Shown here: positions 3,001-29,033 of the stretch, one piece after another
Layout: each line of letters starts with the position of its first letter
Numbering within the stretch: position 1 is the stretch's first letter
IMG/VR virus record: IMGVR_UViG_3300028887_000103
Location: 16,373 to 80,372 of that record
Source: a virus
Lineage: Duplodnaviria > Caudoviricetes
DNA: 64,000 nucleotides
Reading direction: 5' to 3' (one strand)
The notes under the pieces: model-generated
Told to the model about the DNA's origin: nothing
Database searches by the model: none
The model's input: only the letters and a program-made list of their open reading frames with translations
Translations under genes and position numbers: made by a program

Positions 3001-3400
3001 CGATGGTGTCTATAATGCAGGTTGGTGGATTGCTGATAGGTTCTTACAAGGTTTGAAAGATAGAGGTGGTCAGGGTTCGCCGTGGCAAACCACTATGGAA
3101 TCTGGTGTCTTTGCGGTGGAAGGTTTGGTGGAAGGTTTGAAGGCCTCCGAAGGTGCTTTGGTGGACGAAGCAAACAGTCTAGCCGACCAAGTGATTGACG
3201 CTTTGACAATAGATGACCTTGCAATGTCTCCAACACTAAATGTAGGCACAAGTGGTGGTCTTGCTCCAAGTATGGATATCGAAGGTAGTTATGCTAGGAC
3301 AAATGGCAATGTTATAATAAGACAAACTAATAATAATTACACCGAATACGATGTTGAGCAAGTTCAACGAGATTTGGCTTGGGAATTGAGTAAGGTATAA
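11..3400 (+). CDS. Tail tape measure protein (C-terminal part; frame is open to the window edge, so probably 5'-truncated)
   Basis: Long Ala/Gly/Ile-rich helical protein with hydrophobic repeats and Trp-periodic C-terminus; lies directly upstream of a Dit-like gene. Confidence 0.85.
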   Translation: MTSDELSTLNDMWLKKQSIANDEGVRQMTDLKEDTLEQINQLKNGVDGTTVDIEDVGGRLVENIAEGVYGAMPTLESALDQLGDYIEKAKRELAKSGGVGTDTTGGGVNTNGTDDLVSGIKEGITANLEKVKSMLPNIILGAIGAWGVVKFGPKVVKALFNKIGQGLLNGGLGAQGIAGSLFKSADLGLGLRDGLLEVVDKIPREDTTVSGKILNKIQGWLSPKESSQVAKTAKQVTKTSKPVQQIAESSTQISQSVQTTGQSFSKANGWMSSIQQGAKTIIYIAGAIAAVAGALWLAYNALKDVDFVKFQVCLVEMVEAVVVFGALAKLADMLKVGLAGILVIAGVAADVALIGLACSSAYNVMKDIDFVKYQLVIVEMIEALTVFGGFSALLGIFSPIVGPGLLMIAGVAGDVALVGMACRSAYDNMKDIDFGKFQHIILEMIEALGAMGGFSAIFGLFAPLVGLGWLSITAICDELCKVSDALYKVYMTVPDDFDGVNDKIDLIMKVLNKIADTDLGTLIGTIVASWEVGPLTRIIDMYVYVAEQLNKLSQIELNADAIEGNLNYIKTTLDTIKAKTDVITGWLEASALDMEASTVENAGRIVIVYGNMVDALNKLANFKPDETAIAKSLVSMVAVITLLRNQSYGGRGLFNIFNDMGTVANDVDKIKSIVNNYLEMIPTIKSLGDNENKISDALETTVIENVDNIKDIVLAIGSVNTGGWIDQKESDVGKIQSILNKFTELEPVIWQIAQFNLSYLEGDNSAKSKIEKIRNIVLEIGKVDTGGWIDQKESDMGKIQSILNKFTEVAKTTQLLGKYPVADNATTWVQTVRNLVWEIGQINNSQSSSLDSKIEVIEKSKTIAQKLGEFASVIQNLQSVDNGSVIESLTSALNQLLNGVSDSLSNRTSDFENIGAKLGQSLASGVQSQGDAMTNAGNALQSAFWWAINNRMQDEYYQGRSLGERFRQGLYDIDYGNAGWWAVQGFINGAWGRAGSGDGVYNAGWWIADRFLQGLKDRGGQGSPWQTTMESGVFAVEGLVEGLKASEGALVDEANSLADQVIDALTIDDLAMSPTLNVGTSGGLAPSMDIEGSYARTNGNVIIRQTNNNYTEYDVEQVQRDLAWELSKV
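920..1400 (+). repeat. Three imperfect protein repeats in the tape measure (D[VI]DF[VG]K[FY]Q...EM[VI]EA...)
   Basis: DVDFVKFQVCLVEMVEA / DIDFVKYQLVIVEMIEA / DIDFGKFQHIILEMIEA in the translation; coordinates approximate. Confidence 0.75.
2155..2432 (+). repeat. Duplicated segment in the tape measure (TGGWIDQKESD[VM]GKIQSILNKFTE x2)
   Basis: Near-identical peptide twice with similar DNA; coordinates approximate. Confidence 0.8.
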
Positions 3401-4193: not shown

Positions 4194-7100
4194 TGGCAGT
4201 TTTTACCGACCAAGACCAATTATTGATGTCCAGGAGTTTCACCTCCCCGTATGGCTATACTGTTACCACTAAAGTTTACGGTCGACGAACTGCCCTTGGG
4301 GAAGGCACTTGCACAATTCACTACCGATATGTAGTCCAAACATCGACAAATGTATCTGGGATGAGTTGGGGAAATAATGGTGGGGTCTATTGGCGAGATA
4401 CTCAACACTCACAGGTGAATAAAGGCTCTTTTGCCCTTGCATCAACTACGAGCGAACAAGAATTATTTTCAGTTGATGTATATGTGAACGACCCCAATGG
4501 GGCTACTCTTAATGCCTATACTTTTACAGTGTATAACTGGATGGGCTTGAATGAGGGTAATTCAGCAATGTCTAATGACTCATCGGCATTTACCGCTCCT
4601 GCTGGAATCGATATGAGCAATGTGCGAAGGGGGATTGATTCGTTCACAGCGAATGTGAGTTTGACAGGTTGGGGTGGCGGTGGTTCGACTGACGAGAGAA
4701 AATACCGAGAACTACAATGCTGGACTCAAGGAATGACTGAGCCAAGAAGGTATCAAGTTCAATACGGTGGGAGTTTATCTGGTGATATTACCGTGAGTAA
4801 TAGTTCTAGTGGTAGTTTGACAATTCGTCCGAATACAATGTATACGCTAGGTATTTATGCTGCTACTCGTAGTTCTGCTTGGAATGATGGTTGGGCAGGT
4901 ACAGGCTCAAAAAATAAAGGTGTCTATACTACCCTTCCGCCGAAATCCACTTTATCTTTGAATACGGCTGGTTCGAATAGTCTAATGATAAATTATTCTG
5001 CACCTGCCGATGGTGGCCAATACAGTAAAACTTTGGAATATAGTGTAGATGGTGGGACAACTTGGGTTACGGGTGCTACGATAAATTCTGGAAGTGCTAC
5101 AACTGGGACTTTCACTATTTCTAATCTTGACCCGAATACGCAATATACAATTCAAAGCCGAGTGACCACTTCTGCTGGAACTACAACAAATGATAATCTT
5201 ACGGCCAAAACAATTGGTCCAGCAACACCAACTTTGACAGTAGCGAATAATGGTTCTAACTATAAAATCCAGACTGCTACTTACGGGACAACATCTTTTG
5301 GTGGTGGGACTAACGGAGTAGTATCTTTATATGCTGGGACCAGTGCCAATCCGACCACGTTGGTAGATTCTAAAACTACTACTGGCACTTCAACTTTCAA
5401 TAATACTAATCTGCAGGGAAATAAACTTTACTACTATCGTGCTAGAACTCAAGCTGATTTTGATGGGACTACGGTCTATTCAGACTATGTGTCTGCCAAC
5501 CAAGCTACGAGACCTCCAGTCCCTTCTATCACTTCAGCAACAACTTTGCAATATGAAACTGCTAGCACTGTAACGGCTAGAGTTCAAATCAGCGTTCCTG
5601 CCGATGGTGGTTATTCTGCCCAGAAAAAAATTCAATATAGATATTCAACTGACGGTGGTTCAACCTTTACTGCGTGGGTAGATGGACCAGTTATTTCTAC
5701 AAGTTCTGCGACCACTACTTATGTAGATTACACAGGGCTTCCAGTTAGCACGACTTTTAGATTTTCAATTCGTCAGGTAGCAATCACGGGAGGGTTGGCT
5801 TCTAATACAACGACAAAAAATTACACTTCTCCGGGACAACATCAACCACCTACGAATTTTGATTTTGAAATCTTTGATGCGAATACAAACGTAGTAAATT
5901 GGCTTTCGACATTCTCTGGATATACTAGCCCGATTTATGTTCAAGGGCAATCTATGGTTGGAATGAGAATCCCCGAAGCGACAAAAGGAACTTGTTCTGA
6001 TGGTGCGACACTAACTAAATACACTGGGAAACTGGTGGTTGATAATTTTACTATTATCGACACTACTTTTAGTTATCCAGTCGTGATTTCGTTTGGGTTT
6101 AACAAACCGATAAATAGAACCACAGATTATCCGTCCAATCTAATTACTATTCAGGGTTTTGCTTACGACTCGTTGGCTACTTATACGCAAGTGGATAAGA
6201 GTGCTTTATCATTGTCTTGGGAAAAGCCAACTGTGGCTGTGAGTGGGGAACGACTGCCGACAATAGGCACAGCAAGAATTGACTATTCTGGGACTTATGC
6301 TAGATTACAAGACGCTAGTCTAAACAGCGGAAATGACTTAAACAGCATTACGGTTCAATACAGAGTTCTAGATACTGAAGGTAATGTTCTTAAAACTTGG
6401 ACTACGGTGAGTGCGCCGAGTAGTTCAATAGATACAAACAAGCCATTCTTGAGGGATTATTCTGGAAGAATTACTGTGAGCGATATTCCTGCGAGCAGTG
6501 ATTGTAAGGTGGAAGTGAAAATTACTGACCACTTTACGAGTGTTACTGATTCATACATTTTAACCGTCTGGGACAATGCACAAATCAACGAGCCAGTCCA
6601 CTGTGATATTGAATTATGGGATTGGAAAACTAATACTTTCGTTGCCGACCTTTCTTACTTAGTCGTAGGTGAGTTAAACATTACTTGGCAACTAAATGAC
6701 GTGGAAGAAGTCAGTTTTGATATGGACCTGATGGAGTTTGAAAAAAAATGTCAAGAGATGGGGTTGGATTCAGAAGACTTATTAAAACCTTATGCCCACG
6801 ATATTCGGATTCGTAGAAATGGCGAATATATCGTAGGGTGTCAACTTGTAGATGTTGATATTCAAATTTCTAACAATCCGCCTTCAAAGATTTCAGTTAA
6901 AGGCACTGGGTTCTTAAACTTATTGAAAGACCAGTATATTCTAAACGAGGCTTGGAGTGGATATACCTATGCTCAAATTGCTAGGAAACTGGTTCAGGCC
7001 GCTCAACTACCCGATTGTCTAGTGAAAAACCCAACTGGGGATATCGATACTTCTTACTGGCTATCTGGTCACGGGACGATTGCTTACAGTAATAGTGCAC

Positions 7101-12145: not shown

Positions 12146-12333
12146 GTAGATGTGTTATTATCAGCCGTAACGAGACTGCTCTATGTGAGGTAGGTTCTTA
12201 CCTCCAACCTACATTCGGCTTTGACCTGCGAGGGTTGCTTCAGTCCGTCTGAAGTGTAAAATGTTGGCTTAAAAATGCTCACCACATCTATAACACCTCC
12301 TTTCTTTGGAAGAAGACCCTTCGGGGTCTTTTT
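12146..12333 (+). ncRNA. Candidate small RNA antisense to the leader of the 11616..12107 gene
   Basis: Extended -10 TGATATAAT (12132-12140); closing helix TAGATGTG/CACATCTA; internal hairpins; ends at a terminator; no ORF. Confidence 0.45.
12313..12333 (+). terminator. Intrinsic terminator
   Basis: AAGACCC-TTCG-GGGTCTT followed by T tract. Confidence 0.8.
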
Positions 12334-12439
12334 CTTTTTGTTAAGCAGAAAAGGCTAGGTGAAAGACGCAAGTATGAAGCGTATGACCTAGCCTATCTGT
12401 AAAGCGAGGCTTGATTATGCCTAAATCAAACCTACCCTT

Positions 12440-22684: not shown

Positions 22685-23493
22685 GTCAAAGAGATAAAGC
22701 AAAAGTTATTCTGGAAGAATTGAAAAACAGAGGATTCCATCCAGAGGGAGTTAAATATCAGGGTGGCTACTTCCTGTTTGATTTCGGAAAAGATATGGTC
22801 GTTCATTTTCGGCTAAAAGAGTGTAAAGGTTGGCTGTTTGCTATCTGGTGGAATGTAGATGACAAAAATCAATTCGACTTCTTTACTCAATTTGAAAAGA
22901 ATATAGATAAGTTCAAGCCGACTGCTTCTAATTTTGTCCAAACCGATATATCTTATGCGAAAAAGGATGCCCGCTCTATCGTAGATTTCTATCTTCTGCC
23001 GATAATAAAGTTTATTCGGAATCATAAATATGTGGCTTGGTGCTATGACAATTACTATTACCTCAAGAGTTGGCAGTATATGACAGGTTTCGAGGCTTGG
23101 CGTGAATATACAAAATACAGTCTGAAATATTACAGGTTGAAACCGTTGGTAGAAAAAAGAATGGTAAAGCGATGGAAGAAGATTATGCGAGGGATTTGCG
23201 ACCAAGAACTAGAGAATTATGCCATCGTGGATGATAATGTTGGCGGGGTAATCTGCTATCCGAGATTTCATATTGTCTGCGAAAACTTTAAGGAGGAAAA
23301 AGTAGAGAAAGGTTACTGGACACTTGAGATAGATGAACAAGATGTCAAACTAAAAAAGAAGATTGATAGGTTCAACAAAAAACTAAAAAGAATGCAGAAG
23401 AGATTCGGGCATATGTTTGATGTGGATGAAATCAGAACTCATATCGGAGTTGTCGTAAATGGAAAGAGACTTGTAAAACAGAAGAAGAAATAG
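22681..23493 (+). CDS. Hypothetical protein (start re-called to 22681)
   Basis: GGAGG SD; ATGA overlap with the previous stop. Confidence 0.7.
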   Translation: MSQRDKAKVILEELKNRGFHPEGVKYQGGYFLFDFGKDMVVHFRLKECKGWLFAIWWNVDDKNQFDFFTQFEKNIDKFKPTASNFVQTDISYAKKDARSIVDFYLLPIIKFIRNHKYVAWCYDNYYYLKSWQYMTGFEAWREYTKYSLKYYRLKPLVEKRMVKRWKKIMRGICDQELENYAIVDDNVGGVICYPRFHIVCENFKEEKVEKGYWTLEIDEQDVKLKKKIDRFNKKLKRMQKRFGHMFDVDEIRTHIGVVVNGKRLVKQKKK

Positions 23494-23596
23494 TATAATT
23501 AAATTGAGGACAGTGGTTCATTGGTTCTGTCCTCCAGTTTAGGTGCATTACCGGGGCTAGTCAATTCCTTTCGGCTAGTCCCGTCAAGGAGAAAAG

Positions 23597-23758
23597 ATGA
23601 TTACAATAGGTATAATGATAATCGGTTTAGGAATAGGACTTATCTGCTTTGCTTTACTCCTCATCGGTGGGTTTGTCGGAATCTGTCTAATACCAGTTGC
23701 TATAGTTCTGTGTCTATTGAAGGCTCTGTGGAAAATGACTTTTGACAAAGAAAACTGA
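23597..23758 (+). CDS. 53-aa very hydrophobic membrane protein (not in ORF track)
   Basis: SD AAGGAG; MITIGIMIIGLGIGLICFALLLIGGFVGICLIPVAIVLCLLKALWKMTFDKEN. Confidence 0.7.
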   Translation: MITIGIMIIGLGIGLICFALLLIGGFVGICLIPVAIVLCLLKALWKMTFDKEN

Positions 23759-23770
23759 CCTTGCTATAAT
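23742..23770 (+). promoter_or_regulatory. Consensus promoter upstream of the RNA island
   Basis: TTGACA-17 nt-TATAAT with TG extension. Confidence 0.85.
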
Positions 23771-23789
23771 TAAAATACGCATAACAAAC

Positions 23790-24075
23790 AAGCCCATTAA
23801 AAAGTGAGTAGGTTGATAATATCGGTTTGATGATGCCGAGGTAGCCAAAAATACTGTCGTTAAGAAGATACGAGATGGGTGGATGGTGACGGCGAAGAAT
23901 ATCACCACGAGTCCCCAATCCAGAGGTTTAGAAGAGAGATTCGCCAAGAATATAGTTCGGTGACGCTAAACCAAACCGTGAGAACGGAGTTGCAAGGACA
24001 GTAACCTTACAAGCCGAACCAACCAATACTAATTGCCAGCACGGGTGAAGTTATGTTTGATTGAAATGCTGGCAT
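23790..24075 (+). ncRNA. Candidate structured ncRNA 1 (upstream of tRNA)
   Basis: No credible ORF; nested helices (TCGGTTT/AAGCCGA, GGCGAA/TTCGCC, CCGT-GAGA-ACGG, TGCCAGCA/TGCTGGCA); boundaries approximate. Confidence 0.55.
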
Positions 24076-24077
24076 AT

Positions 24078-24153
24078 TGTGGGGAGATGCGGAAGTCGCA
24101 TACTGGCCTCATAAACCAGTTGTTAGTAGGAGCGTTACCTGCCCCCACAACCA
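24078..24153 (+). tRNA. tRNA with CAT anticodon (Met or Ile2) and non-canonical T-loop
   Basis: 76 nt; acceptor TGTGGGG/CCCCACA; encoded ACCA end; D-stem ATGC/GCAT; anticodon loop CTCATAA; T-stem GTAGG/CCTGC with loop AGCGTTA. Confidence 0.8.
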
Positions 24154-24155
24154 TA

Positions 24156-24185
24156 TTGACAATGAAAATATGAATGTGCTATAAT
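24156..24185 (+). promoter_or_regulatory. Promoter for ncRNA 2
   Basis: TTGACA-18 nt-TATAAT with TG extension. Confidence 0.75.
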
Positions 24186-24191
24186 GTAAGC

Positions 24192-24468
24192 AGATTCGGA
24201 CTCGTGCGTCGTGCACGAAGAAAAAGCACCTTTCAGTTGTGGCAGTAGTAGCATAATAAACCCCCCAAGACGGTTAATGCTGAATGTAAATCCGAGAGGA
24301 ATATATCTGGGAGGCGATAAGCCGAAGGATGAACTGCAGAAATGTTTACATTTGAAAATCGGGCTTAAAATATATGGAAAATGCAACACGAAGCCTTGGA
24401 GCCCGTCAATGTAGAGACACTGGCGAGAGTTAGTTCCTACCTACTGTCATAACTGAAGGGTGTTTTTT
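24192..24468 (+). ncRNA. Candidate structured ncRNA 2 closed by a 28-bp helix
   Basis: 24221-24248 pairs fully with 24441-24468 (24 Watson-Crick + 4 G-U); interior has GAGA tetraloop hairpins; ends in a T tract. Confidence 0.7.
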
Positions 24469-24486
24469 GTGTTATAATTTGGATGA

Positions 24487-24593
24487 GGGGCTGACAGGAT
24501 TAGAATCTTAAAGAATGTTACGGACGAAAAAGGGTTTGAAAATAAGTCTGGAGTACTTAAGATGACGTGGTTTCGACACCACCAGCTCCACCA
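24487..24593 (+). ncRNA. Minimal tmRNA-like RNA (tRNA-like domain only, 107 nt)
   Basis: 5' GGGGCTG pairs with CAGCTCC-A-CCA (G3-U70 alanine identity); D-arm-less 5' segment; P2-like helix ATCTTAA/TTAAGAT; GAC-GTGGT-TTCGAC-ACCAC T arm; own TGTTATAAT -10 just upstream. Confidence 0.8.
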
Positions 24594-24606
24594 GGAGGAG
24601 AGGAAT

Positions 24607-25170
24607 ATGGGAAGACCGAAGATTAGAGAGGATTGTTCTGTTACTGGTTGTGACAAGCCCTATTTTGGTAGAGGCTACTGTGTTATGCATTATGCTCGTT
24701 GGAAGAAAAATGGAGATACTGGACCAATAGGAAAGTATGGACAAAGGAGAAAAGTTTTTAGGACAGAAGACCACCCACTTTATGAAACTTATAGAGGTAT
24801 GGTAAAAAGATGTTGTTTGAAGACGCATATTCACTATAAAGATTATGGCGGTAGGGGTATTAAGGTTTGCGATAGATGGTTAGGTAAAAATGGGTTTGAT
24901 AATTTTATTGAAGATATGGGTGAAAAGCCAAGCGGATACAGTTTGGATAGAATAGACAATGATGGTAATTATTGCCCAGAAAATTGTCGTTGGGCTACCC
25001 ATATAGAACAGGCTAGCAACAAACGTAACAATAAAATTATTACATATAAAGGTGAAACCCATACAGCGGCAGAGTGGAGTAGGATTCTAGGTATAAGACC
25101 AGGCACATTTTCTGAACGAAGAAGGGCATATCCTAACGACAAGGACAAATGGTTTAAGGAGTTGGTATGA
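24607..25170 (+). CDS. HNH homing-type endonuclease (start re-called to 24607)
   Basis: CSVTGC...GYCVMHY N-terminal motif; [12 protein letters not shown]; [20 protein letters not shown]...QASNKR; SD GGAGGAG right after the RNA's CCA. Confidence 0.9.
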
Positions 25171-27525: not shown

Positions 27526-28152
27526 ATGGTTACGATAATTACTTTAGTTAGCAATCGGAAAGGATTTGAAAATCTGAAGAGAAATCTAGTCAGTTTTGAA
27601 TCTGATTGGAAACTTGGGGTGGATATTCTTTGTATTGTTTCAGACTATGACTTATATCTAGAATGTCGGAATTTCTTGCACGAAAATGTAGATAGAGGGG
27701 AATGTCTAGTTGTCTTTGACCAAGATGCTACCTTAAAGTCTGGAAAAGAATATCTGGATACCAAGAATGAATATGTGTTCTTACTTGCCGAGAATGTCAG
27801 AGTTCCGAGTGGTGGTATCACTAAACTATACAAAAACTATCTTGAAAAACCACAGGCAGGGTTCATCACAGGGGAGTGGAACCAATTCCCGACTGTTCGC
27901 TGGGTCAAAGATATCTATGGTGCTCCGAAGTATATCTATTCAAATGAGCCGTCACCTTATGGGTTAAGAATGGATATAGATGTGGCAGAAGTCCACGGCA
28001 TAATGACAAAAACTAGTCTATACAAAGAATTGTTCTGTGCAGAGGATTTAGATGGTTACGGTAGTCATAGTTTCGGGATACGATTAAGAAGGCAAGGATA
28101 CAAAAATTATATTAACACAGGGGTAGAATACAAATATGGAGGTAACGAGTGA
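27526..28152 (+). CDS. Putative GT-A-fold glycosyltransferase-like protein
   Basis: N-terminal 'VTIITLV' strand, 'YVFLLAENV' at the DxD position, C-terminal 'FGIRLRRQGYKNYI' GT2-like segment; canonical DxD not seen. Confidence 0.4.
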   Translation: MVTIITLVSNRKGFENLKRNLVSFESDWKLGVDILCIVSDYDLYLECRNFLHENVDRGECLVVFDQDATLKSGKEYLDTKNEYVFLLAENVRVPSGGITKLYKNYLEKPQAGFITGEWNQFPTVRWVKDIYGAPKYIYSNEPSPYGLRMDIDVAEVHGIMTKTSLYKELFCAEDLDGYGSHSFGIRLRRQGYKNYINTGVEYKYGGNE

Positions 28153-29033
28153 AAATAATTATGTTGAAGGGGTTGCCTGCGAGTGGAAAATCTACTTGGG
28201 CTAGGGAGCGTCAAAAGGAAGGTGGCAATTATCTAGTCATAAGCAAAGATGAAATTCGTAAGATGTTCGGCGGGTATGCCCCCAAGCGAGAGAAAGATGT
28301 CTTAAGAGTAAGAAATGAACTGATAAAACTGGGCATTAAACTACGCAAGAATGTAATAGTGGATGATACCAACTTGAACATCAAGCACGAAAGATATATC
28401 AGACAATTGGCAAATGAACTAGGGGTGAAGTTTGAAATCAACGATGACTTTATGGAAGTTCCACCAGAAGAATGTATAAAACGAGATTTACACCGTGGAG
28501 AAAAGGCCGTCGGTGCTAGCGTGATTTGGGATATGTATTATAGATGGGTGGCACCAGACCCACAAGTCAATTTAGATGTAAACTTTGACAAACCGAGGTG
28601 TGTGATTTGTGATGTCGATGGCACATTGGCTCTGAATACAGAGGGCAGAAGTTTCTACGATTTGTCCAGAGTTAACGAGGATACGGCTGACCCGTTTGTC
28701 TCTTGCGTAGTAGATGCTCTGTATAACTATGGCACTGAAATCAATGGGGATAAATACCCTAGCATAATTATCTTGAGTGGAAGGGAAGAAATAAGTAGAG
28801 AAGCCACGGAGGGGTGGCTTAAACAATATGGTATTCCTTATGACCAAGTGATAATGCGAGAAACTGGGGATAAACGGAGTGATAGTATTGTGAAGCGAGA
28901 ACTCTATGAAAAATATGTAGAGCCAAACTACTGTGTCTTGGGAGTGATAGATGATAGACCTAGCGTCTGTGCTGTCTGGCGTAGTTTAGGCTTAAGAGTT
29001 GCTCAAGTTGGTAACCCATATATTGATTTCTGA
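28149..29033 (+). CDS. pseT: Polynucleotide 5'-kinase/3'-phosphatase (T4 PseT-like)
   Basis: GLPASGKST P-loop, VIVDDTN, then HAD domain DVDGTL, SGR, IDDR. Confidence 0.9.
   Translation: MKIIMLKGLPASGKSTWARERQKEGGNYLVISKDEIRKMFGGYAPKREKDVLRVRNELIKLGIKLRKNVIVDDTNLNIKHERYIRQLANELGVKFEINDDFMEVPPEECIKRDLHRGEKAVGASVIWDMYYRWVAPDPQVNLDVNFDKPRCVICDVDGTLALNTEGRSFYDLSRVNEDTADPFVSCVVDALYNYGTEINGDKYPSIIILSGREEISREATEGWLKQYGIPYDQVIMRETGDKRSDSIVKRELYEKYVEPNYCVLGVIDDRPSVCAVWRSLGLRVAQVGNPYIDF

Follow-up and report, generated by a model that had tools for sequence, protein, structure and literature searches.

The 64-kb stretch of phage DNA analyzed here (the window) belongs to an 80,372-bp IMG/VR genome record, rated complete and of ∼40% GC, and carries at positions 24487 to 24593 of the plus strand a real phage gene for a tag-less mini-tmRNA. 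The encoded RNA consists of the tRNA-like domain (TLD) of a one-piece tmRNA and a stub of helix 2 (P2) closed by a hairpin, in all 107 nt, and the gene is present in one copy in the phage genome. It is neither a chance match nor a fresh deletion, both of which are ruled out by conserved copies of 101 to 113 nt at the same spot in related phages. TLD-only tmRNAs are rare in curated data and are missed by standard annotation. Mycobacteriophage DS6A carries a known example of this kind, to which the window element adds a new member. What the analysis adds further is a covarying family for this reduced form, the occurrence of full-length and reduced forms at a single locus in one group of phages, a set of alanine identity elements that is strictly conserved, and a host lead to Candidatus Saccharibacteria. 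With a probability of roughly 60%, we propose that the RNA acts as an alanylated, SmpB-binding competitor of host trans-translation.

A complete tRNA-like domain without an mRNA domain

A sequence-only reading of the window had described a complete alanine-type tRNA-like domain at this position, and the sequence reads accordingly. The 7-bp acceptor stem GGGGCUG/CAGCUCC contains the G3·U70 wobble pair; its 5′ strand, with G3, occupies 24487 to 24493, and its 3′ strand, with U70, is followed by the discriminator A73 and an encoded CCA (24583 to 24593; CUCCACCA, invariant across all relatives). Downstream of the 5′ strand lies an 11-nt D-loop analogue that lacks a D stem (24494 to 24504; ACAGGAUUAGA, read directly from the sequence as GACAGGAUUAGA). 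It aligns with the tmRNA consensus GAucuGGaUUCGAC, and its counterpart in the relatives and in Saccharibacteria tmRNAs is UAGUUUAGAC. The 5′ strand of P2 (24505 to 24516) includes an internal-loop GAA (24513 to 24515) that is kept in the long forms of the family. The apical hairpin (24521 to 24550) is formed by a 5-bp stem (24521 to 24525 with 24546 to 24550) and a 20-nt A-rich loop with the family motif GAAAAnGG(C/G)U. It is followed, within 24550 to 24563, by GGAGUA (24550 to 24555) and the 3′ strand of P2 (24556 to 24563); the GAGUA that faces the GAA is kept in the nine long forms, and this internal loop may be a loop-E/S-turn-like motif. A GAC connector (24564 to 24566) agrees with the tmRNA consensus GGAC, its A and C being invariant in the family (columns A79 and C80). 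The T arm that had been described (24567 to 24582; GUGGU-UUCGAC-ACCAC) is present and turns out to be irregular in this copy, with either a 5-bp stem ending in U-A and the 6-nt loop UUCGAC or a 4-bp stem and an 8-nt loop.

The sequence-only reading had also suggested ARAGORN and Rfam searches, and these gave a divided answer. ARAGORN called 0 tRNA or tmRNA genes in the 64-kb window, and Rfam at gathering cut-offs gave no match to the element. A permissive cmscan of 23450 to 24650, in contrast, matched the tmRNA family RF00023 at exactly 24487 to 24593, with 37.7 bits (E = 2.9e-13), below the gathering cut-off of 47 bits. The alignment runs end to end from model position 1 to 374, with the tRNA-like domain aligned to positions 1 to 31 and 320 to 374 and the 288 inner positions replaced by 22 nt. 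A covariance model built from the family (R1) scored the element at 97.2 bits. The minimum free energy fold reproduces the same four helices, with a z-score of −1.4 that is not significant alone. With tRNA-Ala the element has in common G3·U70, A73, CCA, and the stacking of its T arm on the acceptor stem, but it has no D stem and no anticodon arm; the cloverleaf sought with RF00005 and ARAGORN was not found, and the P2 arm with its 20-nt loop replaces the anticodon arm.

The further claim that pseudoknots and tag open reading frame are absent is borne out. The 22 nt that stand in for 288 model positions contain none of the pseudoknots PK1 to PK4, nor is there a resume codon with a stop-closed tag frame; only the 20-nt loop is left in the window copy, where the frames starting at GAA and at GGG continue into the T arm. 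Across the 12 distinct family sequences described below, no frame is consistently closed, and the RNA therefore has no mRNA domain. The apical loop motif, GAAAAnGG(C/G)U(A/U), is nevertheless conserved across the family. In 7 of the 12 sequences, GAA AAY NGC in the loop runs into UAA or UAG; in 4 of the 12, the window copy included, that frame has no stop, for which reason a one-codon or three-codon loop frame (GGC UAA) was rejected as a general feature. In the tag frames of host and phage, GCA GAA (or GAG) comes first and an A-rich run leads on to GCU. The apical loop is similar to the beginning of the host tag region and may be a vestige of it. Acceptor stem and P2 are both closed inside the one 107-nt piece, which is not the arrangement of a two-piece (permuted) tmRNA. 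A two-piece tmRNA in which the RNA encoded directly upstream (see below) would be the coding piece was also rejected, as its TAATAA (24254 to 24259) is not conserved as stop codons in the relatives.

The closest known counterpart is mycobacteriophage DS6A, listed as a "TLD only" tmRNA on the tmRNA Website (PMC4131195, PMC11915505); of the 97,179 sequences in the 2025 tmRNA database, 9 are classed as "standard, no CDS" (PMC11915505). We located the DS6A element at JN698994 28478 to 28560, where it scores 39.2 bits with the family model. Both RNAs are phage-borne and combine a complete alanine-type acceptor stem, a stemless D-loop, a P2 stub, and a T arm with the absence of a tag frame and pseudoknots, and both match RF00023 from end to end below its cut-off (43.2 bits for DS6A versus 37.7 bits for the window element). 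The features of the DS6A type, a complete tRNA-like domain on a short P2 stub without CDS or pseudoknots and homology to true tmRNA and not to tRNA, are thus found in the window element. The DS6A RNA differs in being only 83 nt long and GC-rich, in lacking an encoded CCA, and in belonging to a temperate actinophage, whereas the 107-nt window element has a longer P2 arm with a conserved internal loop and the 20-nt apical loop, an encoded CCA, and membership in a family patterned on Saccharibacteria-type tmRNA. The CDS-less tmRNAs of mitochondria (jakobid and oomycete) and the ∼65-nt tmRNAs of plastids are likewise cut down to the tRNA-like domain, without a tag frame, but they are organellar, mostly encoded by permuted two-piece genes, and of an unrelated lineage (PMC11915505). 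Full-length phage tmRNAs have been described in Bxz1-type mycobacteriophages and in Bacillus phage G (PMC4131195).

Three further mini-tmRNAs of 105 to 117 nt were found on unrelated IMG/VR contigs: L118 (12368 to 12479, minus strand), L119 (2160 to 2264), and L120 (4806 to 4922). The copies in L119 and L120 score above the Rfam tmRNA cut-off, and that in L118 was found with the family model. All three have canonical UUCGA T loops, and L118 has the same odd 6-nt T loop as the window copy. Contig L118 also contains a Pistol ribozyme match above cut-off at 3190 to 3268.

A covarying family at a conserved phage locus

A search of related phages for the same truncated form, as the sequence-only reading had recommended, yielded a family. 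Relatives were found through the polymerase-exonuclease gene 1.25 kb downstream of the element, which has more than 200 homologues, many of them on contigs of 70 to 86 kb; contigs were fetched across 55 to 93% identity of this protein and represent ∼80-kb gut and rumen phages. Syntenic elements of 101 to 113 nt were present in eight fetched contigs (L124, L125, L127, L128/L129, L130, L135, and L139/L140), and a scan with the family pattern added L142 from IMG/VR and L143 to L146 from JGI metagenomes. The position of the element is constant, where the tRNA region of these phages ends and just upstream of a module of small open reading frames, RusA, and polymerase-exonuclease, and often directly after a tRNA array (L139, 227 to 5041, 28 genes; L142, 13 to 660, 7 genes; L146, 160 to 1385, 8 genes). 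In L146, the element begins 4 nt past a tRNA-Glu gene.

Covariation statistics were computed on a model-based alignment of 12 distinct sequences. Standard pairs fill 97.2% of the cells, compared with 68.9% in shuffled alignments and 34 to 46% when partners are slid, and none of 500 shuffles equaled any of the observed pairing measures. Compensatory changes on both sides occur at 20 of the 25 pairs and in every helix: all eight helix 2 pairs, all five pairs of the apical stem, and all five pairs of the T stem have changed. In the acceptor stem, pairs 5-68 and 6-67 covary freely (CG/UA/AU and UA/AU) beside the only five pairs that never vary, G1-C72, G2-C71, G3·U70, G4-C69, and G7-C66; A73 and CCA are likewise invariant. 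As read from this pattern of substitution, the alignment shows that selection maintains the reduced form. The sequence-only reading had named, as one outcome that would undermine the proposal, that relatives carry a full-length tmRNA and the element is a recent degenerate deletion. The first part does apply, in the lineage of L136 and L138 described below, where the full-length tmRNA is at the same locus; the second does not, given 12 sequences in which every helix covaries, from phages with 55 to 93% identity in the neighboring polymerase-exonuclease.

The window copy keeps the body of the family, and its apical loop is closely like that of L143. It departs from the relatives at the elbow, where its D-loop contains GG and its T loop UUCGA, the latter found in no other family copy; the relatives have AGU and GGC(A/G)GUA, respectively. 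That D-loop and T loop changed together fits a maintained elbow contact, as far as a single lineage can indicate. A GG-type D-loop is also present in 5 of 401 Saccharibacteria-class genomes, and the window copy may thus follow another host.

Homing endonuclease genes recur at this locus. In the window, the CCA is followed directly by the Shine-Dalgarno sequence GGAGGAGAGG and a gene for a 187-amino-acid HNH homing endonuclease (24594 to 25170, plus strand, with ATG at 24607; phrog_3377, E = 5.8e-51). The same HNH gene occupies the same place in L124, and L131 and L132 carry a different one, of the HNH_3 type, inserted in the element between the P2 return strand and the T loop, with a 3′ remnant of the element at 5168 to 5191 of L131. 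The inserted HNH_3 reading frame (4548 to 5191 in L131, and likewise in L132) passes through this 3′ remnant, and the two acceptor halves are mismatched (GGGGTAG versus CAGCTCC). In contig L133, no copy of the element was detected. The element is therefore dispensable in some relatives, being split in L131 and L132 and not found in L133.

The sequence-only reading had assigned the element its own extended −10 promoter; the promoter-like TGTTATAAT is indeed present (24470 to 24478, plus strand), with 8 nt between it and G1, but a −35 element is lacking, the promoter scan did not pick it up, and it is not conserved in relatives. The element lacks a downstream terminator, and its CCA directly adjoins the HNH gene's ribosome-binding site, so that 3′ processing must be assumed. 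Only one sequencing run contains the stretch in full, a bovine gut metagenome and possibly the source sample. Short contigs from two bovine metatranscriptome runs of a single study span only 24243 to 24416; positions 24516 to 24821 are uncovered in two RNA runs and two DNA runs alike, and these data consequently have no bearing on expression of the element.

The region of the element had no blastn match among 50,697 phage records, an exact scan for the 3′ end of the element had no match, and the family pattern had none in 185,579 species genomes. Of 117 sequences returned when IMG/VR was scanned loosely for the end motifs, 6 also had a T-loop motif near the 3′ end, and none of these is a relative; these six were rejected as chance matches or as tRNA genes with an upstream GGGGCTG. 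Searching for related loci with the upstream 285-amino-acid protein found none, and searching with the exonuclease found two distant loci, both without the element.

Full-length tmRNA at the same locus and a probable host

A gathering-level cmscan of the relatives identified a full-length tmRNA of 330 nt at the same locus in L136 (872 to 1201; 67.7 bits, above cut-off), which ARAGORN did not call. It shares with the mini family the acceptor stem GGGGCUG/CAGCUCC, a similar D-loop (GACAAAGUUUAGAC), and GGAC before the T arm, and its T-arm loop GGCAGUA is of the noncanonical type common to L136 and most of the family. It differs in retaining ∼220 nt with a 17-codon frame from GCA to UAA, which encodes the tag AEEKPTAYVLYQPAMAY, and a pseudoknot region. 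By protein identity, L136 (57%) falls between relatives at 58% and 55% that carry the mini form. Since the ends of the L136 tmRNA are nearly identical to those of a host gene, recombination through these shared ends could have brought the full-length copy back from a host.

The noncanonical T loop is a natural tmRNA variant, as it was seen in more than 120 cases in a scan of species genomes. Seven cases were checked, of which four are alphaproteobacterial-type permuted tmRNAs (RF01849) and three are one-piece tmRNAs of Candidatus Saccharibacteria (82 to 96 bits). The tmRNA of Nanosyncoccus is identical to that of L136 over the 3′ 32 nt and differs at one base over the 5′ 20 nt. The tags of the Saccharibacteria, AEKTTAKHVIYSPAFA and AENKTAKHVLYAPAYA, are similar to that of L136, and they end in AYA or AFA rather than in the AMAY of the phage copy. 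Another genome of the Saccharibacteria class combines UAGUUUAGAC with a GGCGGUA T loop exactly as several mini copies do. More broadly, the one-piece Saccharibacteria tmRNAs (L228, L165, L168, and G251) resemble the mini family in UAGUUUAGAC, the GGC(A/G)GUA T loop, and the GGGGCUG acceptor strand; they differ in being bacterial, 356 to 379 nt long, and equipped with tag frames, and the window copy itself, with GG and UUCGA, does not have the Saccharibacteria-type elbow. From the full-length tmRNA at the same locus, together with the D-loop and T-loop signatures common to Saccharibacteria tmRNAs, it follows that the mini family derives from tmRNA and copies a tRNA-like domain of the host type. 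These similarities suggest that the host is probably a saccharibacterium. The terminase gave no host call, with at most 29% identity to cultured phages.

A conserved noncoding RNA of ∼280 nt is encoded directly upstream of the mini-tmRNA (24192 to 24470, plus strand), ending in GGGTGTTTTTTG and preceded by a perfect promoter, TTGACA-18-TATAAT with an upstream TG (24156 to 24185). It shows compensatory changes in relatives and has no Rfam match. Three of 301 Saccharibacteria-class genomes hold homologues with 69 to 71% identity; the match is intergenic in the one locus checked (L269), and in two others it lies near a tRNA-Lys gene. By sequence similarity, this neighboring RNA gene and the tRNA-like domain together point to Candidatus Saccharibacteria as the host. 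To our knowledge, few phages are known for this group. Farther upstream, a second gene-free conserved stretch (23771 to 24155, plus strand) follows another perfect promoter (23742 to 23770); it is ∼75% identical to L125, is also present in L127 and L131, and contains a compensatory pair, GGTGA..TCACC and GATGA..TCATC. Its 3′ end (∼24078 to 24152) has by eye the look of a degenerate tRNA-Met, with a CTCATAA loop, and the aligned place in L125 is called as tRNA-Met.

Proposed competition with host trans-translation

The reading that we favor makes the mini-tmRNA a competitor of the host tmRNA. The RNA would be cut out of its transcript like a tRNA, charged with alanine by the host alanyl-tRNA synthetase (AlaRS), and bound by host SmpB and EF-Tu as the tRNA-like domain of the host tmRNA is. 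Saccharibacteria encode SmpB (for instance at G251:C2:211259-211642), and none was found in the phage genome. The invariant acceptor pairs and A73 include the identity elements by which AlaRS recognizes its substrates. We infer charging because this alanine set (G1-C72, G2-C71, G3·U70, G4-C69, A73, and CCA) is invariant while neighboring pairs vary. With neither a resume codon nor a stop, the RNA could not complete trans-translation; from this would follow competition with the host tmRNA for SmpB and stalled ribosomes and, during infection, less degradation tagging. Both this role and the tag-free rescue considered next had been suggested in the sequence-only reading, and both build on analogy with the DS6A-type RNA. 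A precedent is the DS6A-like molecule that is reported to inhibit tmRNA strongly in E. coli whether or not it could be charged, perhaps through titration of SmpB (Mao et al. 2009, cited by Hudson et al. 2014 [PMC4131195] and by PMC11915505). By the same accounts, inhibition by this TLD analogue needed no chargeability (PMC4131195, PMC11915505), and the strict conservation of G3·U70 consequently hints at more than a passive sponge and suggests that charging matters. If the proposed function is true, these phages interfere with ribosome rescue in ultra-small bacteria.

The same conservation also allows for a second and distinctly less probable reading, in which the RNA itself rescues ribosomes. 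Alanyl-mini-tmRNA would enter stalled ribosomes with SmpB and EF-Tu, take over the nascent chain, and add one alanine; the chain would be freed by drop-off, by peptidyl-tRNA hydrolase, or by an Arf-type factor, leaving ribosomes recycled and proteins unmarked. Tag-free rescue of this sort is a proposal made for the CDS-less mitochondrial tmRNAs. Invariant G3·U70, A73, and CCA would be expected of it, although a sponge is reported not to need chargeability (PMC4131195, PMC11915505), and mitochondria keep their CDS-less tmRNAs together with SmpB (PMC11915505). The AMAY ending of the L136 tag, set against AYA or AFA in Saccharibacteria, could mean that the phage lineage avoids the host degradation signal. 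Against tag-free rescue, an RNA with no stop or resume codon would need a further factor for release.

It is doubtful that the element instead mimics an alanine tRNA or tRNA-like domain for some other target, whether as a decoy for a tRNA- or tmRNA-cutting nuclease or defense system or as a sink for AlaRS, EF-Tu, or the CCA-adding enzyme. Such a role would suit its location in the phage tRNA region and the presence of a polynucleotide kinase-phosphatase gene (28149 to 29033, plus strand; phrog_505, E = 1.3e-82) that is conserved in all relatives fetched; enzymes of this type are typical of RNA repair. Moreover, SmpB binding alone leaves the conserved apical loop motif and internal loop unexplained. 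However, the features retained are exactly those of the tRNA-like domain of the host tmRNA and not those of tRNA-Ala, and no partner gene was found adjoining the element.

Two readings are improbable. One is that the element is a functionless, decaying remnant of a former full-length phage tmRNA that persists as a landing site for homing endonucleases. The full-length tmRNA of L136 at the same locus, the HNH genes beside or inside the element, and the failure to detect it in L133 would all agree with such a history, but a remnant would not retain pairing of 97%, compensatory change at 20 of 25 pairs, and an invariant alanine set across divergence of the neighboring protein to 55% identity. The other, comparably slim in our estimate, is that the apical loop descends from the tag region of a Saccharibacteria-type tmRNA as a vestige and that those members with a stop are the smallest known trans-translation template, which would add alanine and about three residues and then terminate, giving rescue without a degradation tag; the window copy, with no stop, would then be a further-reduced form. 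Least credible of all is an attP site carrying a piece of host ssrA for integration: many mobile elements integrate into ssrA (PMC11915505), but the 80-kb genome has no match to a tyrosine integrase (PF00589), the 5′ half of the domain is also present, and the family pattern is unmatched in the species genomes.

Contigs L136 to L138 encode a 539-amino-acid TROVE/Ro60-like protein (7017 to 8636 in L136). In L135, a match to the Tymovirus tRNA-like 3′ untranslated region element (12317 to 12386; 41.1 bits against a cut-off of 40) lies beside an SSB gene and may be either another tRNA-like RNA or chance.
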